From NCBI GenBank assembly GCA_965263045.1, contig CBDHGK010000022.1:4808-68807 (forward strand): a DNA stretch of 64,000 bases, read 5' to 3'. The translations under genes were made by a program, and so were the position numbers. The DNA is from Terriglobia bacterium. Its GTDB lineage: Bacteria; Acidobacteriota; Terriglobia; 20CM-2-55-15. Below the pieces are notes generated by a model that searched no databases, was not told the origin of the DNA, and was given only the letters and a program-made list of their open reading frames with translations. The first letter of the stretch is position 1; each line of letters begins with the position of its first letter. This document shows, piece after piece, positions 11,887-56,485 of the stretch.

Positions 11887-11974
11887 AATGGAGGATTATA
11901 TATGGAACTCCAGTACTGTTTCGCAACAGGCTTTCGCTGATGGACACAGCCGTCAATCCGGGTGCGGACGCTGA

Positions 11975-12424
11975 TCACTCCCCCGGTCCAGTCGGACTTC
12001 GAAGACGCTGCAAGAATTGCCGGATCAACAGCGGGATTCCGACCAGGAGCAGATACGGAACGAGAGCACCGATAACCACCATATGTGGGCCGAGCAATCC
12101 GCCTACAAGGCTGAGTAGTACGGCAAACGGAGTCGCCACCGCGATTGCGACCCATAACCCTCTGCGCCAGGATCCGACAACTCCTCTCAAGAGGCGTTGC
12201 GCCAGCAACCCGACCAGCAGGCCGCCCAGAAAGAACAGGAGCAGTCCCGATAGTATGGCCGGAATCGCAAACAGCACTTCCGCTGGATCCCAGGAATCCA
12301 TGGAGCCGAAACGGACAAGGGCGAGCAAGAGTTGCAGGACACAGAGTCCGATGCCAAACAGCACTGGCGTCTTCCAGTAACGCCATCGAGAAGAAACGGA
12401 AGCTCTTGAAGGATCGGTGCTCAT
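11975..12424 (-). CDS. Small integral membrane protein (149 aa, 4 predicted TM helices)
   Basis: Highly hydrophobic segments (VLFGIGLCVLQLLLALV, ILSGLLLFFLGGLLVGLLA, WVAIAVATPFAVLLSLVGGLLG, VVIGALVPYLLLVGIPLLI). Confidence 0.5.
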   Translation of the reverse strand: MSTDPSRASVSSRWRYWKTPVLFGIGLCVLQLLLALVRFGSMDSWDPAEVLFAIPAILSGLLLFFLGGLLVGLLAQRLLRGVVGSWRRGLWVAIAVATPFAVLLSLVGGLLGPHMVVIGALVPYLLLVGIPLLIRQFLQRLRSPTGPGE

Positions 12425-12631
12425 GGATTCTCCAATTCAAACGTGTAGTTTTTAGTATGCAATACCCCCCTCCGACGCTGGCCTCCGCCCAGATCCTTTT
12501 TCGGCGGTGTCCACACGGCAATCGCATCCTCGCTCAGCCAGATCGTGACGTCACCGCGGCTCCTGAGACCACGCTCGTACTCCCTCCAGGTCTGGATTCT
12601 TACCGCACATGCAGGGGCACCGGAAACCAGT

Positions 12632-13465
12632 CTACTTTTCAGCGACGATGTAAACCACAAAGGCGGCGTCCGCGTCGCCTTCCTCCGTGGGCGTAAACTC
12701 TCCGTCACCATCCTCCGTCTCTTCGTTGGTGCCTTCCCAGTATACAGTGGCACGCTGGAATCCTGCTTCGAGCAGCAGCTCCCGAATCTCGGGCAAGGTC
12801 CAGAGCCTCCAGTCATAGGTGAAGGCCTTGTTGATCTTTGAGCCGTCGGGGAAGCTGAAATGGATGTGGCATAGCATGTCACCGGTGATGGGGTTGTAGG
12901 CTTTCTGATCCCAGATATAGGTGAACCGGGTCAGCTTCGTGCGTTCGCGCATTTCCCGGTGCGCATCTGAGCCCCCGAAGGCATCGAGCATGAAGAGGCC
13001 GCCATCCAGAAGCCCGCCGTGGACGTTGCTGAAGTACTGTCGTAGTAAGTCCCGGGTTTTGAAGATCCAGTAGCTGAAGTTCATCGCCAATACGATGTCG
13101 ACGGGCGCACATGACACATCTATCACATTGGCGTTGATGAGTTCGATGCGCATCTGAGCCTTGGCGGTCAGCTCTGCGATGTGGTGCTCGTACCCCCATT
13201 GCTGAACGTCAGCATCCAGGTCGACACCGATCACGTGATTGGTTCTTCGCCGGCGAACCCATTCGCAGGACGTATTCGCTGTACCGCAGAAATCTTCGCG
13301 AAGCAACTTTGCCTTACGCCCCCGCAACTGGTGATAGGTATCGTCGACGAAGTCGATTTCGGCTTCCACACACTGGACGGCCTCCTCGTACAGGAGGCGC
13401 CGGTCGGAGCGCTGGGCCCTTGTCGTCTCCTTCTTTTTTCCGGAACGTGCGGACTTTGAGGGCAT
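12632..13465 (-). CDS. Class I SAM-dependent methyltransferase-like protein (277 aa)
   Basis: The DxGxGxG-type motif is not seen in its classic form, but a Rossmann-like VIGVDLDADV and a DIVLAMNFSYW acidic-hydrophobic strand are present. The weak motifs and the overall fold pattern are consistent with a methyltransferase. This is a moderate-confidence family call. Confidence 0.45.
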   Translation of the reverse strand: MPSKSARSGKKKETTRAQRSDRRLLYEEAVQCVEAEIDFVDDTYHQLRGRKAKLLREDFCGTANTSCEWVRRRRTNHVIGVDLDADVQQWGYEHHIAELTAKAQMRIELINANVIDVSCAPVDIVLAMNFSYWIFKTRDLLRQYFSNVHGGLLDGGLFMLDAFGGSDAHREMRERTKLTRFTYIWDQKAYNPITGDMLCHIHFSFPDGSKINKAFTYDWRLWTLPEIRELLLEAGFQRATVYWEGTNEETEDGDGEFTPTEEGDADAAFVVYIVAEK

Positions 13466-13586: not shown

Positions 13587-14402
13587 GGTTCTGGTGCAGA
13601 TAGGATTGTCGGAACGATAAGAGCAGGAGTGCGCTAGGGCGATGCGGCCTATGCTGCCATGACATGACGCCAGGTCACGGCGGGATTCGACTGCAAGGTG
13701 ATCGGAATTGCGAACTGGCGTTGGTGAATCTTCTGCGCTAGCTCGATGCCGATAATGACGCGTCGCGTATTGCAGAACGTCTTGAATCCCAACATCGGGC
13801 GCAATCGCCCCTTCACCCGACGGTGGTCCTGCTCCCGAACGTTGTTCAGGTATTGACAGCAACGAATCTTCACCGGATTCCGCCCCCGGAAGTTGAACTC
13901 ACCGTTGATTCCCATGCGCCGCAGGGCGCTATGGCTCGGCGGGTGGCCATCCAAGGTGATGCTGTGTATGCTTCAGTGCATTGCGAAAGAATGCCTTCAC
14001 CGCCGCAATGCCGCGTGTTCGACTCAGACAGAACTCCACGGTGTTGCCTTGTCCATCCACGGCGCGGTAGAGATACATCAACTGGCCTCGCACCTTGATA
14101 AACGTTTCATCAACCCGCCAGCTCCCACCCACCGGCCGCTCGAATCGGCTCCAACGCCTTTCGCAGGTTTCGGCATAGCGAACGCCCCAACACAAGATCG
14201 TGGTGTGCGAAATCGGTAAACCCCGCTCAGCTAAAATCGCGACCAGATCCCGGTAACTCAGTTTGAAGCGAAAATACCAGCGAAGGCAGAGGAGAATGAT
14301 GTTGTCATCGAACCAACGTCCGGCAAATAGAGGATTCCGTCCAGTTTTCCGATGCGCCATGTCCCATTATCGCCCAGTCCCTTCGCTGTCTGCACCAGAA
14401 CC
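13587..14402 (-). mobile_element. IS6-family insertion sequence, subtype A (816 bp) with 14-bp terminal IRs GGTTCTGGTGCAGA / TCTGCACCAGAACC
   Basis: Perfect terminal inverted repeats at 13587-13600 and 14389-14402. The encoded DDE transposase (MAHRKTGRNPLFAGRWFDDNIILLCLRWYFRFKLSYRDL...VDETFIKVRGQLMYLYRAVDGQGNTVEF plus C-terminal ...CQYLNNVREQDHRRVKGRLRPMLGFKTF...) is IS26-like. Confidence 0.85.
13649..14360 (-). pseudogene. IS6 transposase split by a frameshift (N-terminal part 13929..14360, C-terminal part 13649..13954)
   Basis: Two overlapping ORFs in different frames together cover a full IS6 DDE transposase. Confidence 0.7.
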
Positions 14403-14410
14403 GTCAGGAG

Positions 14411-14467
14411 GGTTCTGGTGCAGATAGGATTGTCGGAGCGATAAGATCAGGAGTGCGCTGCGGGGGG
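14411..14467. mobile_element. Second, solo IS6 subtype-A left end (IR plus ~45 bp) directly abutting the complete copy
   Basis: ggttctggtgcagataggattgtcggagcgataagatcaggagtgcgctg repeats the 13587 end immediately after the 14402 end. Confidence 0.7.
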
Positions 14468-15237: not shown

Positions 15238-16212
15238 TCACCCTCGCCGTTGCCGCATGATATCGAGACTGAATTGTGCATCGGCATGATCTTGCTCGGC
15301 AGCGAGCCGGAACCATTGCACGGCTTCGGCATCGTCTTCCGGAACGCCATCGCCCCTGGCGTACATGTCACCCAGGCTGTATTGGGCATCGACATTCCCC
15401 TGCTCGGCGGCGCGTCGATACCATTTCACGGCTTTGGCCTTGTTTTCCACCGCACCCGCGCCGGTTTCGTACATGATCCCGAGGCTGTATTGGGCCTCAC
15501 CGTATCCCTGCCGGGCAGCCCTGCGCCACCACTTGACGGCCTCTTTACTGTCTTGGGACACGACCTCGCCGTCATCGTACATGCCACCCAGGCTGTATTG
15601 GGCACGGGCATTCCCCTCGGCGGCAGCGAGCCGGTACCACTTCATGGCTTCAGCCTTGTCTTCCGCCACGCCATCGCCGGTTTCGTACATGAGGCCGAGG
15701 TTGAATTGGGCGGGGGCAGTTCCCTGCTCGGCAGCGAGCCGATACCATTTCATGGCTTCGGCCTTGTCTTCCGCCACGCCATCGCCTGTGGCGTACATGC
15801 CAGCGAGGTTGTATTGGGAAGCGGCATCCCCCTGCTCGGCGGCGAGCCGGTACCAACGCACCGCTTCGGCTTTGTCTTCCGCCACGCCATCGCCGGTTTC
15901 ATACATGCCGCCGAGGGTGAATCGGGCATCAGCGTGACCCTGCTCGGCAGCGAGCCGGAACCACTTCACCGCTTCAGGCTTATCTTCCGCCACGCCATCA
16001 CCCAGGGCGTACATGCAACCGAGGTTGTATTGGGCATCAGCATGACCCTGCTCCCCTGCGAGCCGGAACCACTTCATGGCTTCAGCATCGTCCTCGCGAA
16101 CGCCCTCACCAGTGATGTACATGCGAGCGAGACTGTATTGGGAATCGGCGTCCCCCTGCTCGGCCAGGCGTCGGATTTCCGTGATCGGGACCGGGTCCTG
16201 CTCTTGACTCAT
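15238..16212 (-). CDS. Sel1-repeat (SLR/TPR-like) protein, 324 aa, about 8 repeats, no signal peptide
   Basis: Repeating units AxxWYRLAAEQGxAxAQYNLGxMYxxGxGVxxDxxEA are canonical Sel1 repeats. Confidence 0.8.
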   Translation of the reverse strand: MSQEQDPVPITEIRRLAEQGDADSQYSLARMYITGEGVREDDAEAMKWFRLAGEQGHADAQYNLGCMYALGDGVAEDKPEAVKWFRLAAEQGHADARFTLGGMYETGDGVAEDKAEAVRWYRLAAEQGDAASQYNLAGMYATGDGVAEDKAEAMKWYRLAAEQGTAPAQFNLGLMYETGDGVAEDKAEAMKWYRLAAAEGNARAQYSLGGMYDDGEVVSQDSKEAVKWWRRAARQGYGEAQYSLGIMYETGAGAVENKAKAVKWYRRAAEQGNVDAQYSLGDMYARGDGVPEDDAEAVQWFRLAAEQDHADAQFSLDIMRQRRG

Positions 16213-17134: not shown

Positions 17135-18116
17135 CGATCCGGTCCGGACGGATGCTCAAGGAGTTCATCCTCCAATACATGTCCGAGCCTGCGCTCCAGA
17201 TGCGCATCCGACGCAGCCTCCTGAAGGTCGAGCAGATGCACGCTCTTGCGCGCGACCTGTTGGGGTTCTGGTGCAAATAGCAGCTGACGTGAATAACTTC
17301 ACGGGCTGCAAGCGACGCCTGTCGGTGCGCCTCAAGGAACCGCCGCTGCAGGGATCCGGAAAGGTGGAACGATCCGGAGTTGTGGTGGTAACGATCCCGG
17401 TCAGAAGATCGGAAAAGTCCCATGCGCTTCCATATTGTTCCAACGCTATTGCTGTGCGCTGCGGGGATTCTTCGCGGCGTGGGGAGCTGTCAAGCGCTGC
17501 TGCTGTTCGATAAGGCGCTTCGCGAGAAGGTCTTCTTTGGTTACGAAGTATTGATCCATGTCACCGGCGCCCGCGGCACCCCGCGCCTTCTTTTTCGCTG
17601 TTCCACGCTCAACAAATATTTCGTACAGGTCAACAATAATGCTCATGCCGCACTCTCTTTTTATGGTGTGAGGGCTTTCGACTTCATTCAAACAATTGGG
17701 AAAAGGGGAATAGGATACCAAGTTCAAAGTGTCGTCGCAACGCTACTTTCGAATTAAACATAGGCAGTCCGTCAAGGGCTGCGGCCGGCGTGAGGACGGC
17801 CAGCTCCGCAGTGCCGTCATCGCGGCGACGGCCCTGATCGCCTGCACGCTAGGAGCCTGTCGGGAATTGGCTCCCTCGAAGCAAGAATCAAGAACTTACG
17901 AGCCATCCCTGGTCTGTAAGTTGTTGATTTTTGGTTGCAGACTTCTTATTCCCGACAGTCTCCTAGCCGGGAACCGCCCCCGCCTTCATCGCCGCGCAGG
18001 CCGGGGTCTCCGGGCTAATAAGTTCTTCTTGCTTCCATGCGGCGGCCTCTGCGTCTTTGCGCCTCAGCGTTAGCAACGCAGCATCGAACTCGGAAATGTT
18101 GACTCGATGAGTACGA

Positions 18117-24820: not shown

Positions 24821-25039
24821 GCGGATTGATATTTCCCTCCTTTCTCCCTGCTTCCGGAACAAGGTTGGAGATCAGCGCCGCCCCTGAGATTCGTTGCCTT
24901 GTGCCGGACCTGACTTGGAATCAAGACCGACGTAATAGGAAAAGCCATGCCGAAGGATGCGTTGACGAGACGTCGGCGTCGGAAACCGGCATGGGTCTGT
25001 CAGGGACAAACGCTCGTCTTGACCTAACAGTTTAGTAGC

Positions 25040-25297
25040 ATGGAACATGACAGATTCTATGTTCCGTATCTGTCAGATAAAATACCAGAAGCCGCATTCC
25101 ATCGTCAGGCCGTGAAAACCGTTGCCTATCTGCGGGTCTCGACCGCTCAGCAGGACGTGGGCAGCCAGCGCCTCGCCATCCTCGAGTACACACGCAAACA
25201 CAACTTCCGCATCGACGATTTCATCGAGGCGACCGCCTCTGGACAGGCTTCCGAAAAGCGCCGCCGACTCGACGAGCTGATGAACGTTCTCCAGTGA
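25040..25297 (+). pseudogene. Serine recombinase (resolvase) N-terminal catalytic fragment, 85 aa, ending at the left boundary of a 20.5-kb insertion
   Basis: VAYLRVSTAQQDVGSQRLAILEY...IEATASGQASEKRRRLDELMNVLQ carries the resolvase active-site Ser context (YxRVST). A stop follows where resolvases continue with GDxLVVxxLDRLGRS. That continuation is found at 45753..46205. Confidence 0.7.
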
Positions 25298-29107: not shown

Positions 29108-29336
29108 GTGGTGTCAGTAACGCTCGTCAACTATGATCCCAATAATTTATTACTAATATCGCTTGTACGCCTCATTCGGGACAGTACTGGCAAGGACTTG
29201 GCAGAGGCGAAAGAAATCCTTGACCGGTTTGTCGAAGGTAAACCGTGTACTCTCTACTTCAGCAGCCGACAGACTGCAGGCGAGTTCGTGGTCCGTGCTA
29301 TAAATCTTGGGGCAATCGTTAAAGGGGGTTCTGGTG
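29108..29336 (+). CDS. Small protein resembling the ribosomal L7/L12 C-terminal domain, 3' end truncated or fused by an IS6 insertion
   Basis: LISLVRLIRDSTGKDLAEAKEILDRFVEGKPCTLYFSSRQTAGEFVVRAINLGAIVKG follows the L7/L12 CTD pattern (V-R..TG..LKEAK.LV...P..........A.......LGA.V). The IS6 IR (ggttctggtgcaga) begins at 29337 inside the ORF. Confidence 0.35.
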
Positions 29337-30154
29337 CAGATAGGATTGTCGGAGCGATAAGATCAGGAGTACGCATTCGGCAATGCGGACTATGCGGCCA
29401 TCACGTGACACCAGATCAGGGCAGGATTCGACTGCCATGGGATCGGAATTGCGAACTGGCGTTTGTGAATTTTCTGCGCCAACTCGATGCCGATAATCAC
29501 GCGTCGCGCATTGTAGAACGTCTTGAATCCCAACATCGGGCGCAATCGCCCCTTCACCCGGCGGTGGTCCTGCTCCACAACGTTGTTCAGATACTGACAG
29601 CAACGAATCGTCACCATGTTCCGCCCCCGGAAGTTGAACTCACCGTTCATTCCCATGCGCCGCAGCGCGCTATGGCTCGGCTGGTGGCCATCCAAGGTGA
29701 TGCTGTGTGGTTCCCGATGATGCTTCAGTGCCTTGCGAAAGAAGGCCTTCGCCGCCGCGATGCCACGTGTTCGACTCAGTTAGAACTCCACGGTGTTGCC
29801 CTGTCCGTCCACGGCGCGGTAGAGATACATCCACTGGCCCCGCACCTTGATAAACGTTTCATCAACCCGCCAACTCCCACCCACCGGTCGCTCGAATCGG
29901 CGCCAGCGCTTTTCGCAGGTTTCGGCATAGCGAACGACCCAAAGCAAGATCGTGGTGTGCGAAATCGATAAACCCCGTTCACCTAAAATCTCAACCAGGT
30001 CCCGGTAACTCAGTTTGAATCGAAAATACCAGCGAAGGCAGAGGAGAATGATGTCGTCTTCGAACCAACGTCCGGCAAATAGGGGATTCCGTTTAGTTTT
30101 GCGATGCGCCATATCCCATTATCGCCAAGTCCCTTCGCTATCTGCACCAGAACC
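29337..30154 (-). mobile_element. IS6-family subtype A copy (818 bp) with perfect 14-bp IRs; transposase frameshifted
   Basis: IRs at 29337-29350 and 30141-30154. tnp fragments 29780..30112 (MAHRKTKRNPLFAGRWFEDDIILLCLRWYF...) and 29390..29695. Confidence 0.85.
29390..30112 (-). pseudogene. IS6 transposase, frameshifted
   Basis: Two ORFs in different frames jointly cover the transposase. Confidence 0.65.
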
Positions 30155-30203
30155 CCCTCTCTTAGTGCTCATCGGCGACGCTTTACGTCAGTATCGACTC
30201 GCT

Positions 30204-33200
30204 CTACCCCTCCCGTCGGAATCCCGGTGGTGGGGCCTTAAACTCCGTGTCCGGCGACTTCTTGCCCTGCCATTCCCAGGCTGACTGGTCGATTGCCTCT
30301 TTCACCCCCGTCTTCTGCGCCCGCAGCAATTCCTTGACCGGCAGCCGGACGTCCGCTGTCAACATCAGCTCCCCACCGCGAAGGCTCGCCAATTCCCGCG
30401 CGTGGGTCCGCCGCGGGGTCCAGAGGAACGATCCACCGTATCGACCGTGATTCACCGACGCCAGGTTGACGTAGTTCTCGTAGGCACGCACCCAAGTGAG
30501 AGAGTCGAACAGATCTACGTCTTTGTTGAACGCCACCATCAGCAGGTGCAGCAACTCGCCCCGTAGCGCCCTCCAGGGAGCTGCATCGATCAGGTCCGCA
30601 CAGATTGCCACGGTGAAGTCTCCCCACCCAGGGTGCACGAATCGATACCAGCGCCGGCCCCGTAGCATCCGCCACTTCGTCAGCGACGCCTTCTTCGATA
30701 GCGCCCGCGCCAGACCGTCCTCGGTGTGCGCTGGCACGGGCTTTCTGACACGGAAACACCGCACCCCCGGCGGTCCACGGTCATCTCCAACCGGCACAAT
30801 CAGCTCCGCCTCGTTCACGAAACACGCCCATGTCGGCGTGAATCCCCTTGGCGGACGAAAAGCAGGCCTCAGCGCACGCCAATAGAGCCCCGCGACCGCC
30901 CCCTTGCCCTCTTTCCGCACTAGGGCCCGCAGGCTCGTGACCTCCTGCTGGGGGATTGCCAATTCCGGTAGCACCACCAAACGCGGACCCTCATCTCCAA
31001 CGCCCTGTGCCGGTGCCAGGAACACATTGGAAACCTGTTCAATCATCGCATTTGCCGTGGCCGACGAAATCGCCGGGAATCGCGTCACGACATCTGCTTC
31101 GTTCGGCCATGCGGTCACTTGGCCGACGCGTACGACCAGTTCATCGATGATCGAAGTGTCCGCAACGCGCAATTCGGAAGGCAAATCTGGGCCCCGCAAA
31201 TCGCCCGCTGGGCGAATCGTCCTGACGACCTCAAGATCCCCTCCTGTAGACAAACCAACGTCGATCCTCTCCGGCAGGAAGTCCTCCCAAGAGACACGGT
31301 CGCACGACCAGTCAGCCAGCGACTCGACGAGATGAACTCCAGATCCTGTCACATCCGATCCTGGCGATTCGCTCCAGCGTAGGACCCCCTCAATCGACTC
31401 CCAAGCCTTGAACGGCAGGTGAATCCGAGACCGCCATGCCCATCGATCCACGAATGGCGTGCCCCTGACACCCCATCGTGCTAAACCGTCGAGAATTCGT
31501 TCGTTGCCGTCCAGCACCGTCAGCAGGAGCAGCACGTCGCAGTACAGGACATAGCTATCCACGTGTACTCCGCGCGCGGCCGCCGACACGAACGGCAGAT
31601 AGAACGCCGCGTGCGGCACCACTTCCCATGCCGTCGACCTTTCCATTGACAGCGATTGATCGACTCGTTCCGGTTCCTCATCCAGGTCGAATTGCCAGCG
31701 GCGACCCGCAGCCAAAACGCCGTTCACATCCTTGATCCGCCAAGTTAGCGGTCCCTCTCTCGGCGCCCACCCCTCCGGTACCGCTATCGTGCGGACGACT
31801 GTGAGCAGCGCTGCGGAAACGCGACTAGGTAGGCCTACCGCCGGGGTCTCCCATGCGGACATCGGCCAGTCTTTCAGCCCGGTGTCCACGGGCGTGCCCC
31901 ACAGGAGCCTGTGCACTGTCGGCGTACTCGTGGGACTCGCCTCCTGACCGACGATCACACGTCGTGCGCGGGCGTAGTCGTGCAGCAGGAACGCATCGTG
32001 CTCGAGTGCTTTTACATCCCGGTGCAGTGAGGGAATCGCTTTGCGCGCCAGCGCCGACGTGATCCACTCGAAGCAGCCAAGAGCAAGCCCCGCCGCCAAC
32101 GCTCCCCGCGCATTATCCCCAACCCGCGAAATGCGCGGTTGGCCGGACGCCGGGAATAGAACACCGCCCAACTTGTCATTCCAATGACCCAACTGCACGT
32201 TCGCCAGCGCCCAGTTGTCCAGATTCCGATTGCGCCTCGGCCCCGTATGCTGCAGCCTCCCGAAATTCGACAGAAGCCCGGTCGCCTTCGGCATTTCCTC
32301 AAGTTGTGCGGTCGACGGCACAAGCAATACCGATCCCGGCCCCGCGGTGCTCCGCCATGCCTCCGCGAGTTCCAACGTCGAGTGCGTCGCCAAGATCGCT
32401 TCGACAAACTCGTCCAGTTCCCACGGCCACGCGGTGATGTCTACAACGCTGGTCGCCGGATAGAGTATGCCCACCCATTGATCGATTCGGCCCAAAGACG
32501 CCGCCACCTGCGCGTGGTTCCCTTCCCCGGCGGCTCTCGTGGTCCAGAGAACCGGTGAAGCCACCCACATGTCCGCTTCCTCATGCGCCACCGGCTCGGC
32601 ATGCCGTTCCAATTCACGCACCACTTGCGCGAGCGCCCGCCAAAACGCCGCTCGGAGGAACGACAGATAGAGTTCCCGCCAACCGTCCGTCCGCTCGGTG
32701 GCGTGTCCGTCATCGGTATCTATCTCCGGCCACGCGCTCAGCCACGCCGCCGACTCTTGCCGGTCGCTCACGCAAGCGATTCGACGGAGCTGATTGCACA
32801 ACCACCTTGACGCCTCTTGAGCGGTATCGCTATTGTTCTCCGGCTCGCCAAGCGGGCGCCGCGCCGCGCCGCGAACTACCGCACGCCAGATCGCGAATTT
32901 CCATGGCGTCCGGTCCAGCACGAAACTGATCGTCTCTCGGATTTGGTGCAAGTTCCGGTGCTGCTCGCCGGCCTCCCGGGCCTTCGGCAACCAAGCACGA
33001 ACAAGCCGGTTGACGGAGAACGTGCGACGCGTATCCGGCCGCACCTGCTCGTCCTCAATGTCGAAGCGCGCCAGTTCGTGCAGTCGCGCCAGGTGATCCC
33101 GGGCACCCTCGCCGAACCGCTGGCGAAGGGTGTCCGTCCCCATGTCGCTCAACAGTTCGACCAGGCTCGTGACGAACGGACCGACGTCCCCTTGCTCGAT

Positions 33201-34631
33201 CGCCGCGCGCTCCAACGCCTCGCGGTGGGACGTGAATTCGTCGCTGCTCGACTTGACCGCCCACCAGTCCGACACCCCCCCGGTCGCGTGCACTCCCAGT
33301 GGCGGTGGCAACGGCTGTTTGCATTTCTCGTTTTCGCACTCGGTCCAACCATTCTCTAGGAGGTACTTGCCAATTACTGCCTGCACCGCATTCGGCTTGA
33401 TTTTCTTGAAACTTATGCAGATGTTTGAGCCCTCATTCGGGGTCGCAAGCGACGCCGCTCCGGTTCCCGATAATGCTCCGTGAACGGCTTCGACGAGGGA
33501 AAATAGGCCACCTAACGATCTCGACAACACGTACATGTCGTCTGCAAACCTGACTATGGCCCCTCGATCCTTCCCTGAGGTCCCTGCGAGATAACGCCCG
33601 ATCACTCGATCCGGCTCCAGGAGTACCACATTGAGCAACACCCCGGAGATGGCTAGCCCTGTAGGTATCCCTTCGTATGGCTCCACGGCTACCCTTGGCA
33701 ACGGGTGACCCTGTGGAGGTCCCCAGGAATCCAGGGGGATTCCACAGGGGTCCAGCGTGACTTCCCCCAAGGCTTTCGTCAGCCGGCGTCCAATTTCCAC
33801 CCGAACATCCTCGACGGCAAGCGCTTCCAATACCGGTTTCGGACAACCGTCAAACAGCCCATTGAAGTCGACCGACTGCCGGAGCGCGTCTTCCATTGCC
33901 ACGGCCAAACGCTCGATGCGCACCGATGGGTACGCCAATTCGATATCCAAGGCCCCCCAGCGCGCGCGTGGCGAGTCGACTGGTCCTTGCCACCAAGCCT
34001 CTCCCGTCCACTTCGGAAGCGTGTCTTCCCCATAGTCCTCGGGAATCTGTACAGGATCCGAGTCGTTGTCCGCTGGCAGCGTCGCTTTCGTCATCCGAGC
34101 CACGGTCCAATGCGCCACGCGCCGAAACAACCCATGCGATCGAGCGTATGAAAGGAAGATTCTGTCCGTGAGCACCGGATATGGACGGTGCACCCACCGT
34201 GCCGGTTTTGCCCGACGATCCCAGGCGATTGGCCGATACCACCGATTCCCGAAGGCGAAGTTCGCAACCTGTACATCGAGGATCGGCCCCACCGCGACCA
34301 TGTGGGCCATGAACGCCACTTGGTCCCGCACCGTCGGCATCACGTAGTGCCTCAGCCGCGCACCCTTCTTCGGGTAGGGCACCTGACGCCATCGTTCCGG
34401 CTTCCAGTTGCCGTCGCGCAACGCCGTCGCCAGATCTCGAAGCATCGCATCGGGGTACAGCCTCCATCGCGATAGTTCCGGCTGCGGCGCCAGATTCCCA
34501 CCTCTGTACCAGGAATCCACACGCATCCAAGCACCCTGAAGGATCACCGGATTCCCAAGCACCTCCGCTGCCTTCTGTGCGTTGTGTTCCGAGTTCATGC
34601 GTCCATTCGGCCTCTGCCCCTCCGTAGGCAC
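30204..34631 (-). CDS. Reverse transcriptase-nitrilase fusion protein (1475 aa); defense-associated RT of the DRT type 1 / UG1-UG5 kind
   Basis: The N-terminal ~400 aa hold RT motifs. These are RLYPDAMLRDLATALRDGNW...VPYPKKGARLRHYVMPTVRDQVAFMAH (motifs 1-2), YEGIPTGLAISGVLLNVVLLEPDRVI (motifs A-B), and RFADDMYVLS (a YxDD-type catalytic box with F in place of Y). The C-terminal ~270 aa carry the carbon-nitrogen hydrolase catalytic triad context: LVVLPELAIP (Glu), FRVRKPVPAHTEDG (Lys) and FTVAICADLIDAAPW (Cys). About 750 aa of unassigned sequence lie between. Confidence 0.75.
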   Translation of the reverse strand: MPTEGQRPNGRMNSEHNAQKAAEVLGNPVILQGAWMRVDSWYRGGNLAPQPELSRWRLYPDAMLRDLATALRDGNWKPERWRQVPYPKKGARLRHYVMPTVRDQVAFMAHMVAVGPILDVQVANFAFGNRWYRPIAWDRRAKPARWVHRPYPVLTDRIFLSYARSHGLFRRVAHWTVARMTKATLPADNDSDPVQIPEDYGEDTLPKWTGEAWWQGPVDSPRARWGALDIELAYPSVRIERLAVAMEDALRQSVDFNGLFDGCPKPVLEALAVEDVRVEIGRRLTKALGEVTLDPCGIPLDSWGPPQGHPLPRVAVEPYEGIPTGLAISGVLLNVVLLEPDRVIGRYLAGTSGKDRGAIVRFADDMYVLSRSLGGLFSLVEAVHGALSGTGAASLATPNEGSNICISFKKIKPNAVQAVIGKYLLENGWTECENEKCKQPLPPPLGVHATGGVSDWWAVKSSSDEFTSHREALERAAIEQGDVGPFVTSLVELLSDMGTDTLRQRFGEGARDHLARLHELARFDIEDEQVRPDTRRTFSVNRLVRAWLPKAREAGEQHRNLHQIRETISFVLDRTPWKFAIWRAVVRGAARRPLGEPENNSDTAQEASRWLCNQLRRIACVSDRQESAAWLSAWPEIDTDDGHATERTDGWRELYLSFLRAAFWRALAQVVRELERHAEPVAHEEADMWVASPVLWTTRAAGEGNHAQVAASLGRIDQWVGILYPATSVVDITAWPWELDEFVEAILATHSTLELAEAWRSTAGPGSVLLVPSTAQLEEMPKATGLLSNFGRLQHTGPRRNRNLDNWALANVQLGHWNDKLGGVLFPASGQPRISRVGDNARGALAAGLALGCFEWITSALARKAIPSLHRDVKALEHDAFLLHDYARARRVIVGQEASPTSTPTVHRLLWGTPVDTGLKDWPMSAWETPAVGLPSRVSAALLTVVRTIAVPEGWAPREGPLTWRIKDVNGVLAAGRRWQFDLDEEPERVDQSLSMERSTAWEVVPHAAFYLPFVSAAARGVHVDSYVLYCDVLLLLTVLDGNERILDGLARWGVRGTPFVDRWAWRSRIHLPFKAWESIEGVLRWSESPGSDVTGSGVHLVESLADWSCDRVSWEDFLPERIDVGLSTGGDLEVVRTIRPAGDLRGPDLPSELRVADTSIIDELVVRVGQVTAWPNEADVVTRFPAISSATANAMIEQVSNVFLAPAQGVGDEGPRLVVLPELAIPQQEVTSLRALVRKEGKGAVAGLYWRALRPAFRPPRGFTPTWACFVNEAELIVPVGDDRGPPGVRCFRVRKPVPAHTEDGLARALSKKASLTKWRMLRGRRWYRFVHPGWGDFTVAICADLIDAAPWRALRGELLHLLMVAFNKDVDLFDSLTWVRAYENYVNLASVNHGRYGGSFLWTPRRTHARELASLRGGELMLTADVRLPVKELLRAQKTGVKEAIDQSAWEWQGKKSPDTEFKAPPPGFRREG

Positions 34632-34896
34632 TTCCGGCGCACGTCAAACCATTCGCCAGAGCGCGCGACTCAGTTTACGGCTGCGCGTCCTTCTCGATTG
34701 ATCTGTTTCACCAAGGTCAGTCGCTTGACTTCGGTCTCTCCGGGCCGGTGGGGATGGCCGCTCCTCGAGTACACGCATGCGAAGTTGCGAACCGTGACCA
34801 GTTTTCCAGGGAGTCCATGGGTGCGCTGAAGACATCCGGAGAGTACCAGAATCTTCGTATCTCGGGCCTCCCGGTCAAGCGACTCTGCCGCCGTCT

Positions 34897-35142
34897 CTAC
34901 TTCGGGTGCGCGATGATAGTGTGGAGGACGTAGTCGTCCCCTTCGATGGTGAAATAAAAACGCCAAGATCGATTGACCCTGGCTTGCCACAAGCCCGTGG
35001 ACTCGTCGTATTTCTTGGCGTGCAGCGACGGATGCTGAAGGTTGTCGGCGAGGAACCGCTCCTGCTTGTCGAATGCGCGCTGCACATCGGCCGGCGCGGC
35101 TGAATAGTCTTTCTCGAACCTGGCGGTGTGAATGAGCCGCAT
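34897..35142 (-). CDS. RelE/ParE-family type II toxin (81 aa)
   Basis: MRLIHTARFEKDYSAAPADVQRAFDKQERFLADNLQHPSLHAKKY...WQARVNRSWRFYFTIEGDDYVLHTIIAHPK follows the RelE/ParE fold pattern. The start abuts the upstream antitoxin stop. Confidence 0.65.
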   Translation of the reverse strand: MRLIHTARFEKDYSAAPADVQRAFDKQERFLADNLQHPSLHAKKYDESTGLWQARVNRSWRFYFTIEGDDYVLHTIIAHPK

Positions 35143-35454
35143 CTACCGGCGGCTTGCCTTCTTCGTTCGACGCGCCCCGGCAATCTTGTGGAGCGACGCC
35201 GTCGCCTGCTCCGCGGTGTCGAACGGCCCGGAGTACCTGCCGCTCTTGAAGTCCTCCATGCTTTCTCGAAAGGCCGCGTGCAGGCGGCTGTCGATGAGCG
35301 TCTTCGGCGTCATGACGACTCTGCCCTGCTGTTCTTCGACCTCGAGGTAGTCGCCGGGTTTGAGGCCGAGACGGTCGTGCAGCTTCTTGGGGATCACGAC
35401 CTGGCGGCTCACACCCAACTTGACGGTAGTTGGCGCGTCGGATTGTTTTTTCAT
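35143..35454 (-). CDS. AbrB/MazE/SpoVT-type antitoxin (103 aa)
   Basis: VKLGVSRQVVIPKKLHDRLGLKPGDYLEVEEQQGRVVMTP is the looped-hinge-helix AbrB domain. It lies immediately upstream of the RelE-like ORF. Confidence 0.6.
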   Translation of the reverse strand: MKKQSDAPTTVKLGVSRQVVIPKKLHDRLGLKPGDYLEVEEQQGRVVMTPKTLIDSRLHAAFRESMEDFKSGRYSGPFDTAEQATASLHKIAGARRTKKASRR

Positions 35455-35509
35455 ATATTTGTATATTACAACTAGAGCGGGCGTCGGTCAACTAATGTGC
35501 CTGATCGAG

Positions 35510-35879
35510 GACCACCGGTGTTGCCCTCTCCGTCCACGGCTCGATACAGGTACATCAACTGGCCCCGCACCTTGATAAACGTTTCATCAACCCGCCAACT
35601 CCCGCCCACCGGCCGCTCGAATCGGCTCCAACGCTTTTCGCAGGTTTCGGCATAGCGAATGACCCAACGCAAGATCGTGGTGTGCGAAATCGATAAACCC
35701 CGCTCACCTAAAATCACGACCAAGTCTCGGTAACTCAGTTTGAAGCGAAAATACCAGCGAAGGCAGAGGAGAATGATGTCGTCTTCGAACCAACGTCCGG
35801 CAAATAGAGGATTCCGTTCAGTTTTGCGATGCGCCATAACCCATTATCGCCAAGTCCCTTCGCTGTCTGCACCAGAACC
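35510..35879 (-). mobile_element. IS6 subtype A fragment (right IR plus the first ~120 codons of tnp; 5' half deleted)
   Basis: IR tctgcaccagaacc at 35866-35879. ORF 35472..35837 begins MAHRKTERNPLFAGRWFEDDIILLCLRWYF and loses homology after ...LMYLYRAVDGEGNT. Confidence 0.75.
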
Positions 35880-36256
35880 CCCTGGATGCAGCCGTAGCTG
35901 CGGCGTACGGTTGGGCGGCGTACGTTTCCAACGACGAAGTTCTGCGCGAGTTGTTGGCGCTCAACAGAGGTGGAACCTGAGCCACTGGAAGAATCGGTTG
36001 TATCAAGGCCGACTGGGCACTCGCCCCCGCAGGCCTGTCGTCATGCCCTGAGAGGCGGAATCTGGCGGTGAACTTTCGAGGGAGAAGCAGAGCAACCGGA
36101 CGCATGCTTCGACGACGGATCCGGACGCGCGGATGCATCGGAAGAGCCAGGGAGTGGAGACGAAGATGGCCCGGGCCATTGGCAAAGGCGGAGTCCGTCG
36201 CCTGACGGCTCCGCCCTCCGTCCGCTGTCCCATTGCTCTGTCGGCATTGGCGGTCG

Positions 36257-37441
36257 TCACTCCTCCGAATCCTTGGGAGGCGGCAGGTTCAGCAACTCGT
36301 CGACCGTCATGACGCTTTGCGTCACCTGAGCAGAAACCCACAGGGAACGCGCGGCCGGTTCCGGTAGGTTGGTCGTGTAGATCGTCCCGGACAGCTCGAG
36401 GGCCCCGCTCTCCGCCTTCCCGATATAGAAGACCTCGGACCACACCGGCCGTCCGGGCTGCAGATCGCCGCAGTCGATCTCGATGCGGTATCGGTCAGTG
36501 TTCGAGTCAATCTCCACTGCACCGGGCATGTTCAGCGATGGGTCATTGATCGATGCAAGAGCATCGATATCCCACGGATATGATATTTTCTTGGGTGCCC
36601 GCGGCAGTTCCGTGCCGTCCTTGACGACGACGCCGATGTCGGCCGGAATCCGCAGCTCACAGCGAACGTCCTGGGCTGCGACGCGTCCGACGTTTCTCAC
36701 GAGGATGCGCACGGGCCGAAATAAGCGTCGCGCGGAGGCATAGGCGGCCAGTTCTCGATAGTAATCGGGATTCGTCTGGATCATCGTATCTTCCAGGGTG
36801 CCGAGGCGCGAGCTGTAACGGGCCGGGTTGAAATACGGAATGTCGTCTGCGGGAGGCATCTCGCAGGACTCAGCGTCGAACGAAATCTTCGTACCGAGTG
36901 AATTCTCGCGCTCGATGTGGGCAAACTCGATCACGAGTTCGGTCGGCTCCGGTTCCGCCACTTGGCCCATCAACGCAACTTCCTCGGGCAAGGCGGGACT
37001 TGTGGGGTCCGTCGACGTTCCCCGGCGAATGTAGACTTGGTGCTTTTCGAGCTTTCCGTATGGCCGTTTCAGATAGATTGGCCGCGTCTGCTTATCGATT
37101 CGGATAATACCGACGTTCTTGCCCTCCAAGCGAAACGCCTCGTAGTGGAAACGCACGGGGCGGTTCGTCAGTCGGTTTACGAACTGCTGGAGCGAGTGGT
37201 CGTCGAGATGTTCAGTTGCTGGTATTCCCGTCACCTTGCTCCTGACGCCCCGAACTTCTTCGACGCCGATCAAGATGTACCCTTCAGAACGCCGCCACGC
37301 ATTGGCGAAGCCGAGTATGTCCTTGAGCAGCTCCGCCTTTTCGTCCTTCGATGCCTTTGCGAAGCGATACTGCTCTTTCTTGAAGTCCAGAGTCGGGCTC
37401 TCTTCCTCGAAGAGGAGGCGTTCAACTAGTCCGTTGTTCAT
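36257..37441 (-). CDS. AlbA_2 (Schlafen-like, divergent AAA) domain protein with an unknown C-terminal domain (394 aa)
   Basis: N-terminus ESPTLDFKKEQYRFAKASKDEKAELLKDILGFANAWRRSEGYILIGVEEVRG matches the AlbA_2 pattern (E..LEFK........l.kdi.afANt.GG.lliGv.d). Confidence 0.6.
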   Translation of the reverse strand: MNNGLVERLLFEEESPTLDFKKEQYRFAKASKDEKAELLKDILGFANAWRRSEGYILIGVEEVRGVRSKVTGIPATEHLDDHSLQQFVNRLTNRPVRFHYEAFRLEGKNVGIIRIDKQTRPIYLKRPYGKLEKHQVYIRRGTSTDPTSPALPEEVALMGQVAEPEPTELVIEFAHIERENSLGTKISFDAESCEMPPADDIPYFNPARYSSRLGTLEDTMIQTNPDYYRELAAYASARRLFRPVRILVRNVGRVAAQDVRCELRIPADIGVVVKDGTELPRAPKKISYPWDIDALASINDPSLNMPGAVEIDSNTDRYRIEIDCGDLQPGRPVWSEVFYIGKAESGALELSGTIYTTNLPEPAARSLWVSAQVTQSVMTVDELLNLPPPKDSEE

Positions 37442-37614
37442 GCGAACCCAATCCCTTCTCCCTCAAATGCTCGCCGTTTGAAGCTGTCCCGGGTTCAGTT
37501 GAAACCTTCGATGCGCGTTGTTGCCTGGACCGAGGCGGAGATGGAATTCGCCTCGATTCATGTAACAACGCTGGGCAAACTCAACAATCCTATCTGCACC
37601 AGAACCCATTAAAT

Positions 37615-40807: not shown

Positions 40808-42048
<1,241 letters not shown>

Positions 42049-43509: not shown

Positions 43510-45576
43510 TTACCGTCCGCAGTCCTGGTAGCTTGAGGCCATGCACGCCCGCGCCCAGTCAGTCGCGCGGCGGATCTCGGTGCGGGTCATGTCCCGTTCT
43601 ACGGTGGCCCGCCAATCCATAGCGTCTACGTGTCCTTTGCCGGCGGCGACGTAGAACCACATGTATGCGAGCACGGAATCCTTGACGACCCCTAGAGCAT
43701 TGGCGTACATGAACCCGAGATTGTATTGCGCGCTGGCAATGCCCTGCGCGGCGGCCAAGCGATACCAGAGAGCGGCTTCGGCAGCGTCCTTGCTCACGCC
43801 ACGCCCGTTGGCATAATGGACGCCGAGGTTGTACTGCGCGCCGGCGTGGCCCTGTTCGGCCGCCAAGCGGAACCAGCGTACGCCTTCGGCAAAGTCCTGT
43901 GGCACACCTCGGCCCTCGTTATACATGCCCGCGAGGTTATACTGCGCAACGGCGTCTCCTTGATCGGCCGCCAAGCGATACCAGCGCACGGCTTCGGTAG
44001 CGTTCTCAATGACGCCATCCCCAAAATCGTAACTGATCCCGAGGTTGTACTGCGCAACGGCGTGGCCCTGTTCGGCCGCCAAGCGGAACCAGCGCACGGC
44101 TTCGGCGTCGTCGGGGGGAACACCTCGGCCCGCATCATACATGGTCCCGAGGTTGTACTGCGCGGGGTCGTGGCCTTGATCGGCCGCCAAACGGAACCAT
44201 CGCATGGCTTCGGCAAAGTCCTCTGGCACACCTCGGCCCGCAGCATACATGACACCAAGGTCGGACTGGGCGCCGGCATGGCCCTGTTCGGCCGCCAAGC
44301 AGAACCAGCGCATGGCTTCGGCGTCGTCGGGTGGAATACCTCGGCCCGAGAAATATATGAAGCCGAGGTTGTACTGCGCCTCGGCGTCACCTTGTTCAGC
44401 GGCTTCCCTGACTGCGTCGAGATTCTCCGGTTCATCTTGCGCTACGCTCTCACCCGTGTCGTACATCGAGCCAAGGTCGGACTGCGCCTTGGCGTCACCC
44501 TGGTCAGCGGCCAAGCGGCCAATGGCGGCCTGCGCAACCGCTAATCCCAGGTCAGCGGCTAAGCGGAGCCACCGGACTGCGTCCGCTTCACCTTGTTCAG
44601 CGGCCAAGCCGAACCACCGGGTGGCCTCGACGTCATCCTCCACCACGCCCCAGCCCGCGGCGTACATCGCGCCGAGGTTAGTCTGCGCAACCGCTAATCC
44701 CTGGTCAGCGGCCAAGCGGTACCACCGGACTGCCTCAACGTCATCCTTCGACACACCCCGGCCGTCGAGGTACATCCCTCCGAGGTTAGTCTGCGCAGCC
44801 GCTAATCCCTGCTCAGCGGCTAAGCTGTACCACCGGACAGCCTCCGCGTCATCCTCCGCCACGCCCCGGCCATTGGCGTACGCCACGCCAAGGTTGTACT
44901 GCGCCAACGCGCGGCCCTGTTCTGCGGCCAAGCTGTGCCACCGGATAGCTTCAGCGTCATCTTGCGGCACGCCTATGCCCTCGAGGTACATCCCTCCGAG
45001 CGCTTGTTGTCCCTCCGCGTTACCTTGTTCTGCGGCCAAGCTGTACCACCGGACGGCCTCCGCGTCATCCTCCGCCACGCCTATGCCCTCGAGGTACCTC
45101 AAGCCAAGAGCGGTCTGTGCGGCCGCGATGCCCTGTTCTGCGGCTAAGCTGTACCACCGGACAGCCTCCGCGTCATCCTCCGCCACGCCCCGGCCATTGG
45201 CGTACGCCACGCCAAGGTTGTACTGCGCTGCCGCGATGCCTTGTTCTGCGGCCAAGCTGTACCACCGGACGGCCTCCGTGTCATCCTCCGCCACGCCTCG
45301 GCCATTGGCGTACATCACGCCAAGAGCGGTCTGCGCGACCGCGTGCCCCTGTTCTCCAGCCCGGAGGAACCACCGGACAGCCTCAACGTCGTCTTGCGGC
45401 ACACCATCGCCGACGAGGTACATTACCCCGAGCGCTTCCTGGGCAACCGCATCACCGCCTTCTGCCTGTACGCGCAACCGTGTAGTCTCAGTGTCCTGCC
45501 CCGACAGATTTCCAACCAAGACGAATACGGACAACAGTAGAGCCAGCAGACGAATGTTCGCGTTTCGGTTAGCCAT
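43510..45576 (-). CDS. Secreted Sel1-repeat protein, about 688 aa, roughly 16 Sel1 repeats
   Basis: Signal/TM segment MANRNANIRLLALLLSVFVLVGNLSGQ followed by many AxxWYxLAAEQGxAxAQxxLGxMYxxGxGVxxDDxEA units. Confidence 0.8.
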   Translation of the reverse strand: MANRNANIRLLALLLSVFVLVGNLSGQDTETTRLRVQAEGGDAVAQEALGVMYLVGDGVPQDDVEAVRWFLRAGEQGHAVAQTALGVMYANGRGVAEDDTEAVRWYSLAAEQGIAAAQYNLGVAYANGRGVAEDDAEAVRWYSLAAEQGIAAAQTALGLRYLEGIGVAEDDAEAVRWYSLAAEQGNAEGQQALGGMYLEGIGVPQDDAEAIRWHSLAAEQGRALAQYNLGVAYANGRGVAEDDAEAVRWYSLAAEQGLAAAQTNLGGMYLDGRGVSKDDVEAVRWYRLAADQGLAVAQTNLGAMYAAGWGVVEDDVEATRWFGLAAEQGEADAVRWLRLAADLGLAVAQAAIGRLAADQGDAKAQSDLGSMYDTGESVAQDEPENLDAVREAAEQGDAEAQYNLGFIYFSGRGIPPDDAEAMRWFCLAAEQGHAGAQSDLGVMYAAGRGVPEDFAEAMRWFRLAADQGHDPAQYNLGTMYDAGRGVPPDDAEAVRWFRLAAEQGHAVAQYNLGISYDFGDGVIENATEAVRWYRLAADQGDAVAQYNLAGMYNEGRGVPQDFAEGVRWFRLAAEQGHAGAQYNLGVHYANGRGVSKDAAEAALWYRLAAAQGIASAQYNLGFMYANALGVVKDSVLAYMWFYVAAGKGHVDAMDWRATVERDMTRTEIRRATDWARACMASSYQDCGR

Positions 45577-45630
45577 GTGGATCAATCTCCCCTTCTCCGC
45601 CATTGGTTGTCACAAATCTCACAGACCTTG

Positions 45631-56078: not shown

Positions 56079-56485
56079 GGTTCTGGTGCAGATAGGCAAG
56101 GGACTTGGCGATAATGGGATATGGCGCATCGGAAAACTGAACGGAATCCTCTATTTGCTGGACGTTGGTTCGAAGACGACATCATTCTCCTCTGCCTTCG
56201 CTGGTATTTTCGCTTCAAACTGAGTTACCGAGACCTGGCCGAGATTTTACGTGAGCGGGGTTTATCGATTGCGACCGATGTTGGGATTCAAGACGTTCTA
56301 CAATGCGCGACGCGTCATTATCGGCATCGAACTGGCGCAGAAATTCACAAACACCAGTTCGCAATTCCGATCCCATGGCAGTCGAATCCCACGGTGATCT
56401 GGCGTCACGTCATGGCAGCATAGGCCGCATCTTCGTAGCGCACTCCTGGTCTTATCGCTCTGACAATCCTATCTGCACCAGAACC
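56079..56485 (+). mobile_element. Internally deleted IS6 subtype A derivative (407 bp, both IRs intact, tnp reduced to an in-frame N/C-terminal fusion)
   Basis: IRs ggttctggtgcaga (56079) and tctgcaccagaacc (56472). ORF 56121..56423 reads MAHRKTERNPLFAGRWFEDDIILLCLRWYFRFKLSYRDLAEILRERGLSI followed directly by the transposase C-terminus ...QFAIPIPWQSNPTVIWRHVMAA. Confidence 0.75.

Follow-up and report, generated by a model that had tools for sequence, protein, structure and literature searches.

The question raised by this locus is what a reverse transcriptase (RT) fused to a nitrilase is doing between insertion sequences in a Terriglobia bacterium, and to which of the known RT groups it belongs. 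The gene lies on the minus strand of a 64,000-nucleotide stretch of contig CBDHGK010000022.1 (the window, by which we mean the whole of this stretch; features are listed in Table 1). We think it likely that it encodes a self-contained, single-polypeptide anti-phage enzyme, a class 3 UG/Abi RT–nitrilase of an unclassified family nearest UG6, which would act by a mechanism like that of the defence-associated reverse transcriptase DRT1 and which is carried as a passenger of a composite of IS6-family insertion sequences (ISs).

An open reading frame (ORF) without interruption runs from 34631 to 30204 and has 1475 codons if started at the GTG at 34631, which is the length given in a preliminary description of the sequence. 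A database protein 100% identical to the window RT–nitrilase begins 11 codons downstream of this GTG and is 1464 residues long, and leader alignments show that close relatives keep the ATG at 34598 but have non-start codons in place of the GTG. Translation therefore most likely begins at this ATG, with a product of 1,464 amino acids, so that the intact reading frame described earlier is borne out and the likely protein is slightly shorter. Residues are numbered from this ATG. The exact protein gave no match in the contig index searched.

The N-terminal part carries the FADD box that had been quoted for the RT, and residues D218, F351, D353 and D354 are invariant in an alignment of 26 full-length homologues of 37–84% identity. 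The PADLOC models that match the N-terminus are the generic RT model and RT_UG6 (1e-11), and all significant RT-specific PADLOC matches of the protein are to UG/DRT models, with UG6 on top. The AlphaFold2 model of residues 1–888 has a predicted local distance difference test score (pLDDT) of 88.5 and a predicted template-modelling score (pTM) of 0.92. Foldseek with this model gave 43 matches at E<1e-3, every one of them a reverse transcriptase, the top ones being group II intron RTs.

At the other end of the protein, fused to the RT, is a carbon–nitrogen hydrolase of the RT-associated nitrilase clade. Residues ~1172–1473 match the PADLOC models RTasNitrilase (7e-36), RT_UG5-nitrilase (8e-24) and Drt1a (8e-15). 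The alpha-beta-beta-alpha nitrilase fold is present together with the Glu-Lys-Cys residues, the register of the lysine against the canonical K-x-H being uncertain. The three sequence contexts described for these residues were all found, and E1212, K1286 and C1333, as well as E1374, are invariant in the same 26 homologues; the FKAPPPG tail at the C-terminal end is also invariant. Amongst solved structures DRT1 (PDB 9YFD) is the best relative by the family profile and the only one found with the profile of the C-terminal module, which aligns Cys1333 to Cys1116 of DRT1, a residue essential for immunity (PMC13275509).

Pfam searches had been proposed as one check on both domains, with the lack of a significant match counting against them, and taken at the letter the Pfam result alone does speak against them. 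RVT_1 reached E=0.068 (13 bits against a cut-off of 29.6 bits), CN_hydrolase was not found on the protein, even with the isolated C-terminal segment at E 0.5, and Pfam and NCBIfam together gave no usable domain call on the whole protein or on three C-terminal segments. PADLOC, the profiles and the structure models nevertheless show both domains, and the weak or absent Pfam scores reflect the divergence of RT and nitrilase rather than missing domains.

The ~750 residues that had been left without assignment between the two domains resolve, by structure prediction, into an alpha-helical domain and a kinase-like fold. Residues ~400–888 are nearly all alpha-helix in the model of the N-terminal part and have no match in Pfam; the model of residues 889–1464 has a pLDDT of 85.1 and a pTM of 0.89. 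The middle region is conserved from end to end, with dozens of invariant Trp, Arg and Pro residues. An invariant His lies within HAAFY (residues 996–1000), at a position that we read as the HRD catalytic loop, and YCDVLLLLTVLDG (residues 1019–1031) resembles kinase subdomain IX. Provided that HAAFY does correspond to HRD, the domain lacks the catalytic Asp and is probably a pseudokinase, which, speculatively, may serve as a sensor or scaffold.

The UG6 model is the best specific RT model both for the window protein and for each of the seven relatives tested. The scores are partial, 42 bits over positions 167–363 of the 925-position profile for the window protein and 54–75 bits for the relatives, covering at most positions 3–425, as against 783 bits over positions 2–915 for a genuine UG6 protein (P0373). 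Conversely, a profile of the RT and helical domain (module A; the kinase-like domain and nitrilase are module B) recovers bona fide UG6 proteins at only ~1e-33. An hhalign comparison with five true UG6 sequences gave a probability of 99.9, E 3.6e-36 and 26% identity over query residues 8–534, with no detectable similarity past residue ~534, and module B against UG6 gave nothing significant. The UG29 model reaches at best 1.4e-9, amongst the distant relatives. The Drt1a models align on the nitrilase region alone (profile 964–1146 of 1176 and 1114–1194 of 1232), as does RT_UG5-nitrilase (679–891 of 907); since both match only the nitrilase segment, the protein is assigned neither to UG1/DRT1 nor to UG5. 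Similarity of the nitrilase cannot itself assign the RT group, because the nitrilases of UG1, UG5 and UG6 are reported to mix in a single radiation at odds with the RT tree (PMC13436386). From these sequence comparisons we therefore place the window RT in class 3 UG/Abi, as a separate group beside UG6 and outside UG1, UG5, UG6 and UG29. The preliminary description of a DRT-type RT–nitrilase is thus upheld as to a defence-type (class 3 UG/Abi) RT fused to a nitrilase and set aside as to UG1/DRT1 or UG5.

Mestre et al. (2022, PMC9226505) describe the UG6 RT as having, towards its C-terminus, a region remotely similar to kinases but without catalytic residues, and as being accompanied by a nitrilase encoded separately and by a DnaG-type primase. 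The kinase-like fold found here matches this remote kinase homology and supports the kinship, as do the RT profiles, the large size and the association with an RT-clade nitrilase. The two differ in that the nitrilase is a separate gene in UG6 and fused in the window family, and in that the split forms of the window family (see below) break before the kinase-like domain, not after it; moreover, no DnaG-type primase or other conserved neighbour was seen in 40 loci of the window family, a comparison that did not include an explicit search for primase domains. It is these differences, against a common RT lineage and kinase-like domain, that lead us to a separate group next to UG6.

DRT1 of Klebsiella pneumoniae shares with the window protein a single polypeptide with N-terminal RT, helical middle and homologous C-terminal nitrilase, a conserved C-terminal tail, the lack of a non-coding RNA (ncRNA) and a stand-alone gene in defence islands. 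Its RT and nitrilase are parted by an alpha-helical repeat domain, to which residues ~400–888 are similar. The window protein differs in the group of its RT and exceeds DRT1 by ~240 residues, its helical domain being larger and a kinase-like domain being present in addition. It has no predicted long disordered loop after the RT (residues 385–470 are predicted by AlphaFold2 to be structured, with no alignable loop), and no Drt1b-like membrane partner was seen for its family. UG5, with its large (DRT11) and small forms, resembles the window family in having fused and two-gene forms inside one family; a minimal RT and nitrilase are sufficient in UG5-large (PMC13436386), and the DRT11 locus, on a megaplasmid and flanked by toxin–antitoxin (TA) modules, recalls the TA-flanked plasmid context described below. 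The second protein is, however, kinase-like plus nitrilase (~590 residues) in the window family and nitrilase alone in UG5. UG29 (about 2500 residues, primase–RT–nitrilase) likewise combines a class 3 RT with a fused nitrilase and, in common with UG6, is linked to the same hydrolase type, whereas the window protein is ~1000 residues shorter and without an N-terminal DnaG primase.

The family is large. Amongst the matches listed, full-length homologues of 1440–1560 residues at 42–100% identity form ~100 clusters at 90% identity, and at least 100 further 90% clusters have a two-gene version, in which protein A (~880 residues) is RT plus helical domain and protein B (~590 residues) kinase-like domain plus nitrilase. 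The split is always at residues 887/893, and the two genes often overlap by 4 nt, as in locus L036 (9986–12634 and 12631–14436; L001–L043 label the contig loci that carry homologues). In a neighbour-joining tree of module A the split forms are interspersed with the fused ones, so that fusion or fission has taken place several times. The natural split means that RT plus helical domain and kinase-like domain plus nitrilase can fold separately and must associate, and it lends itself to studies of the link between DNA synthesis and activation of the nitrilase. When the module-A profile was run exhaustively with HMMER, 153 representatives of 50% clusters scored E<1e-30, and the number rose to 384 at E<1e-10, more distant fusion proteins of 1400–1690 residues among them. 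The genome matches are all metagenome-assembled genomes (MAGs) and span at least eight phyla, with members from Gammaproteobacteria, Acidobacteriota (Vicinamibacterales, Bryobacterales, Thermoanaerobaculia and Ca. Versatilivorator), Gemmatimonadota, Spirochaetia, Chloroflexota, Planctomycetota and Bacillota; no relatives were found in IMG/VR viral contigs or, by tblastn, in PLSDB plasmids. Most members have no recorded Pfam domain, and the only source name is "hypothetical protein". To the RT–nitrilase mechanism newly assigned in 2026 with DRT1, the family thus adds a large unannotated branch, one that current defence-finder models would not type by its RT. Some relatives are disrupted: the gene is split by an IS in L010 (a 461-residue transposase; 11828–13213) and by an insertion in L028 (~11944–12994), and the nitrilase-bearing half is frameshifted in five MAGs (L014, L018, L020, L024 and L025), which is either decay or long-read assembly error.

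The gene is preceded by a leader of ~245 nt, which probably carries the promoter and translation signals; its last ~110 nt are conserved in relatives from unrelated contexts. Homology to L042 and L043 spans only the leader, the ORF and ~45 nt beyond it (34843–30159), and the same cassette, at 84–89% nucleotide identity, recurs in L001, L042, L043 and the window with surroundings that are unrelated. As judged from these alignments, the RT–nitrilase is mobile as a compact single-gene cassette, and homology of the leader to sequence downstream of the methyltransferase gene of L001 suggests capture from a locus related to bacteriophage exclusion (BREX). No RNA partner was detected: the leader (299 nt folded) is not stabilised relative to shuffled controls (z = +0.58), the consensus fold of eight aligned leaders reaches only −4.9 kcal/mol with no covarying structure, and no alignment of upstream regions is obtained for relatives of less than ~75% protein identity. 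Over the whole window Rfam finds only an IS3 frameshift element and no intron, retron or diversity-generating retroelement (DGR) RNA. No structured RNA lies next to the gene, in line with the earlier statement on intron and retron RNA features, and the absence of an RNA partner agrees with the observation that class 3 enzymes work without an RNA template. The Rfam match is an ALIL pseudoknot (41642–41758, minus strand, 103.6 bits) and belongs to an IS3-family transposase (ORFs at 40808–41719 and upstream), whose programmed frameshift it serves.

In the window the gene, its leader and a MazE/ParE-like TA pair are the passenger of an IS6-family (IS26-like) composite unit. A complete IS6 copy, whose transposase has an in-frame stop, sits 46 nt past the RT stop. 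The upstream copy, cut by a deletion, retains a terminal inverted repeat and the first ~107 transposase codons and forms a direct repeat, at 94% identity, with 29791–30090. Between it and the RT gene lie the MazE gene, whose stop abuts the ATG of the toxin, and a sigma-70-like promoter (35491–35463, from a promoter scan) upstream of the pair. A 273-codon ORF at 34670–35491 (minus strand) was rejected as a gene: it is Arg-rich, without homologues, and overlaps the MazE and ParE-like genes in other frames. As the longest ORF upstream of the RT it is a trap for length-based annotation in GC-rich DNA. Loci from two other samples, L040 and L041, encode a protein at least 90% identical to the window RT–nitrilase and are 99.2% identical in nucleotides to window 35517–29947 over 5,572 bp. 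Their order is RepA_C, ParA, full IS6, 348 bp, MazE, toxin (ParE-like, following MazE as in the window), RT–nitrilase and an internally deleted IS6. Their upstream IS6 is full length; part of it and the 348 bp are missing from the window, which is short by ~0.8 kb at this junction. A RepA_C C-terminus at 63756–63998 (minus strand), cut by the window end, is 58.5% identical over 82 residues to the RepA_C of L040/L041, and a further 148 bp of their backbone matches window 63102–63249. This order and the RepA_C end point to an IS6-bracketed passenger on what is probably a RepA_C plasmid. The arrangement resembles IS26/IS6 pseudo-compound transposons in that two directly oriented copies bracket a ~5.7-kb passenger on a plasmid-like replicon, in three samples, and differs in that the passenger is a defence gene with a TA pair and not resistance genes, and in that both IS copies in the window are defective, one truncated and one with a nonsense codon.

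Elsewhere the gene often lies inside defence operons. In 14–15 of 51 loci it is co-directional within a BREX or BREX-related operon. In type 1 BREX, BrxC stands on one side of the gene or gene pair and PglX on the other, with BrxA upstream (L009, L020, L023/L030 and L036), and in type 3 (gene set BrxF, BrxC, PglXI, PglZ and BrxA) it directly follows PglXI and precedes BrxHII/PglZ (L014, L017, L018, L022 and L029). In five further loci (L001, L002, L042, L024 and L027) it lies between a DUF1156 methyltransferase and a HEPN-DUF499 ATPase, in either order, a system named BREX-related type 1 (PMC12839542). The spacing is operon-like: in L029 the end of the nitrilase gene and the start of PglZ share 4 nt, and in L014 a gap of 26 nt separates PglXI from the RT start. 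In about two thirds of the 51 loci no gene of BREX or of a BREX-related system lies within 10 kb, and no remnants of such genes were found in the 64-kb window. Clustering of 730 neighbour ORFs from 40 loci gave no gene cluster common to more than six loci, and hence no conserved partner gene amongst them. Other neighbours are a CBASS-type E1-E2/JAB protein, a DrmMI-like or type IIG enzyme, PDC-S06, SMODS, HTH-M78 regulators and TA pairs. Carriage within BREX operons on the one hand, and with a TA pair and IS6 on a plasmid on the other, gives concrete examples of single-gene defence cassettes moving between loci and replicons.

Two kinds of neighbour recur in these loci. A gene for an HTH_3 plus Peptidase_M78 (ImmA/IrrE-like) protein stands directly upstream of the RT in L009 (8685–9950), L020 (4048–5331) and L023 and L030 (7567–8859), and near it in L042 (16463–17557) and L043 (2334–3473); it may be a regulator travelling with embedded defence genes. 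In type 3 BREX loci with the RT–nitrilase, a ~320-residue protein (L014 14446–15411, L018 19423–20439 and L032 12164–12832) matches the C-terminal part of the PADLOC retron model RT_III-A (E 1e-14) and is a second, unrelated gene embedded in those operons.

How the enzyme might work is suggested by analogy with DRT1 and UG5 (PMC13275509). The RT would make short, template-free DNA primed on a side chain of its own, and the covalent DNA adduct would drive oligomerisation through the nitrilase domains. The oligomer would make the nitrilase competent and yet restrain it, possibly through the invariant C-terminal tail, until a phage replication protein releases it; the freed nitrilase would then destroy an essential amide- or amine-bearing metabolite and so abort the infection. 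Protein priming, template independence, gating of the nitrilase and abortive infection are what we infer from these two enzymes, the only ones for which protein-primed template-free synthesis has been demonstrated biochemically (PMC13275509). Autonomy is supported by the lack of any neighbour cluster in more than six of 40 loci, by the cassette in unrelated contexts, by the interleaving of fused and split forms, and by DRT1 and UG5-large, which function as single genes (PMC13275509, PMC13436386).

Several points weigh against this interpretation. The prediction of a defence role for UG6 was scored inconclusive by Mestre et al. 2022 (PMC9226505). The priming Ser of DRT1 (S402) is part of a long disordered loop that follows the RT, other class 3 RTs do not conserve it (PMC13275509), and the AlphaFold2 model of the window protein has no comparable disordered loop to host a priming site. 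Sequence similarity to DRT1 outside the nitrilase is marginal, and as DRT1 has nothing that corresponds to the kinase-like domain or to the much larger helical region, regulation may differ. The recurrent place inside BREX-type operons could mean that the protein is not autonomous, and the IS just past the stop and the truncated IS upstream bear on expression in the window.

Other explanations have to be set beside this one. That the protein belongs to DRT type 1 (UG1) or to UG5 as a true, if divergent, member is very improbable. The outline architecture of an RT with a fused C-terminal nitrilase is the same, the Drt1a and RT_UG5-nitrilase scores are significant and DRT1 is the best solved relative, but neither model matches the RT region above the generic level, the RT of every member tested aligns best with UG6, the intermixed nitrilases say nothing of the group (PMC13436386), and the kinase-like domain is a trait of UG6 and not of DRT1. 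We give just as little credence to an RT that serves a mobile retroelement (group II intron, retron or DGR) or the surrounding transposon instead of defence. Such a role is hinted at by the position between ISs, by the group II intron RTs at the top of the Foldseek list and by NCBIfam group_II_RT_mat at E 8.9e-13; this last match, however, covers only 73 residues of the fingers and scores 48 bits against a cut-off of 300, and retron_St85_RT reaches E 0.32. There is no maturase/X or endonuclease domain, Rfam gives no intron, retron or DGR RNA and no structured RNA flanks the gene, the flanking IS6 elements use a DDE transposase that needs no RT, the gene is absent from the IMG/VR viral contigs, and hundreds of homologues have kept the nitrilase and helical domains together with the RT. 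The preliminary description had likewise argued against a group II intron or retron, and rightly so.

It is also unlikely, less so than either of these, that the window copy is a silent passenger, unexpressed or decaying in an IS-riddled plasmid region. The density of IS6, IS3, IS5, IS630 and Mu-like elements, the IS 46 nt after the RT stop, the damage to both flanking IS6 copies and the seven frameshifted or interrupted relatives would all be in keeping with this. Against it, the 4.4-kb ORF is uninterrupted and keeps every family-invariant residue, the leader is intact, and the near-identity of the unit over 5.6 kb in two other samples argues for recent spread and maintenance. A somewhat better, though still doubtful, case can be made that the RT–nitrilase is not autonomous but an accessory or back-up effector of BREX-superfamily systems (types 1, 3 and DUF499-centred), the window copy being an orphan torn out by IS6 activity. 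Besides the co-directional, operon-like placement between core BREX-type genes, the closest non-plasmid relatives of the window protein (79–84% identity) are all in BREX-related type 1 loci, its leader is homologous to sequence downstream of the L001 methyltransferase gene, and its PHP-AAA ATPase and AlbA_2 protein have relatives beside the gene in BREX loci. Yet about two thirds of the loci, the window included, have no BREX-type gene within 10 kb; three systems with non-orthologous neighbours are better explained by insertion into a permissive, variable site; the invariant residues are all kept in the IS6/plasmid context, with 99.2% identity across three samples; BREX loci are known hosts of unrelated embedded effectors (PMC12839542); and the characterised RT–nitrilases act alone. 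A 2026 survey of BREX auxiliary effectors mentions neither reverse transcriptases nor nitrilases (PMC12839542). On present evidence we doubt that the BREX association is functional. We can put forward only tentatively, as a rather unlikely proposal, that a new class 3 UG/Abi group has been recruited repeatedly into BREX type 1, type 3 and DUF499-type operons, usually beside the methyltransferase gene, as a second-line abortive-infection effector coupled to methylation-based systems, with the pseudokinase as the sensor or coupling module; if true, it would be the first reverse-transcriptase-based effector tied to BREX-superfamily immunity. The reading that we prefer remains the autonomous anti-phage enzyme.

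Table 1 Features of the window, with the evidence for each
Feature	Position	Strand	Evidence or remark
RT–helical–kinase-like–nitrilase gene	30204..34598	−	1464 aa + stop; mechanical ORF reaches GTG 34631
5' leader, ~245 nt	34599..34843	−	blastn homology to L001, L042, L043 ends at 34813–34843
Reverse transcriptase domain, res ~1–400	33399..34598	−	PADLOC RT + RT_UG6, Foldseek, hhalign, invariant residues
RT motif A, Asp218 within GALDIELAYPSV	33921–33956	−	codons checked
RT motif B-like GIPTGLAISG	33639–33671	−	codons checked
Catalytic FADD, res 351–354 (IVRFADDMY, res 348–356)	33537–33548	−	codons checked
Alpha-helical domain, res ~401–888	31935..33398	−	AlphaFold2 secondary structure, invariant Trp/Arg, fission point
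Kinase-like fold, res ~889–1170	31089..31934	−	
Nitrilase (C–N hydrolase) domain, res ~1171–1464	30207..31088	−	
Glu1212 (VVLPELAIP, res 1208–1216)	30963–30965	−	
Lys1286 (RVRKPVPAHT, res 1283–1292)	30741–30743	−	
Cys1333 (TVAICADLI, res 1329–1337)	30600–30602	−	
Complete IS6-family element	29324..30157	−	inverted-repeat matches 29327 + 30154; Pfam DDE_Tnp_IS240
Truncated IS6-family element, 5' third	35512..35882	−	inverted-repeat match 35866–35879; alignment
ParE/RelE-like toxin, 81 aa	34897..35142	−	read from sequence; weak Pfam ParE_like, E 0.018
MazE/AbrB-type antitoxin, 103 aa	35143..35454	−	Pfam MazE_antitoxin, 8.7e-9
IS6 terminal repeat matches/elements	964–977, 13587–14402, 14411–14424, 17264–17277, 29327–30154, 35866–35879, 37593–37606, 56079–56485		terminal-repeat matching
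PHP + SMC/AAA ATPase, 937 aa	25791–28604	−	
AlbA_2 protein	36257–37441		
Serine recombinase N-terminal fragment, 85 aa	25040–25297	+	Pfam Resolvase, 1.9e-10

Around the unit, the island that had been described, with a TA pair (MazE/AbrB and ParE-like), an AlbA_2 protein and a PHP ATPase, is present in all its parts. Its supposed insertion into a resolvase gene is not demonstrated, as only the N-terminal fragment of a serine recombinase is there and a motif scan and reading of the ORFs found no matching 3' part in the window. L041 has several resolvase fragments near the cassette, and L040/L041 are ~91% identical to window 24932–25294. The directly oriented IS6 pair that forms the immediate frame of the gene had gone unmentioned.

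Beyond the island, a single IS6 family has shaped the window into a mosaic; its terminal repeat GGTTCTGGTGCAGA has eleven matches against 0.4 expected. There is a second complete copy of ~816 bp at 13587–14402, and a ~400-bp internally deleted derivative with both ends at 56079–56485; IS3, IS5, IS630 and Mu-like elements and fragments are dense as well. The window also encodes eukaryote-like repeat proteins, namely a 1650-residue CARDB/cadherin/fn3 protein (1015–5967, minus strand) and two Sel1-repeat proteins with 8 and 15 repeats (15238–16212 and 43510–45603, both minus strand). Sel1, cadherin and fn3 repeat proteins of this kind are typical of host-associated bacteria; a life as marine sponge symbionts may be guessed at from the MAG taxa and these proteins. 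The C-terminal ~130 residues of the PHP-AAA ATPase are 43–51% identical to proteins of ~916–1287 residues that stand immediately after PglX in L023 and L036, and that occur also in L037. An 885-residue neighbour in L003 that resembles the ATPase is typed PDC-S06 by PADLOC, a typing that covers the L003 protein alone.

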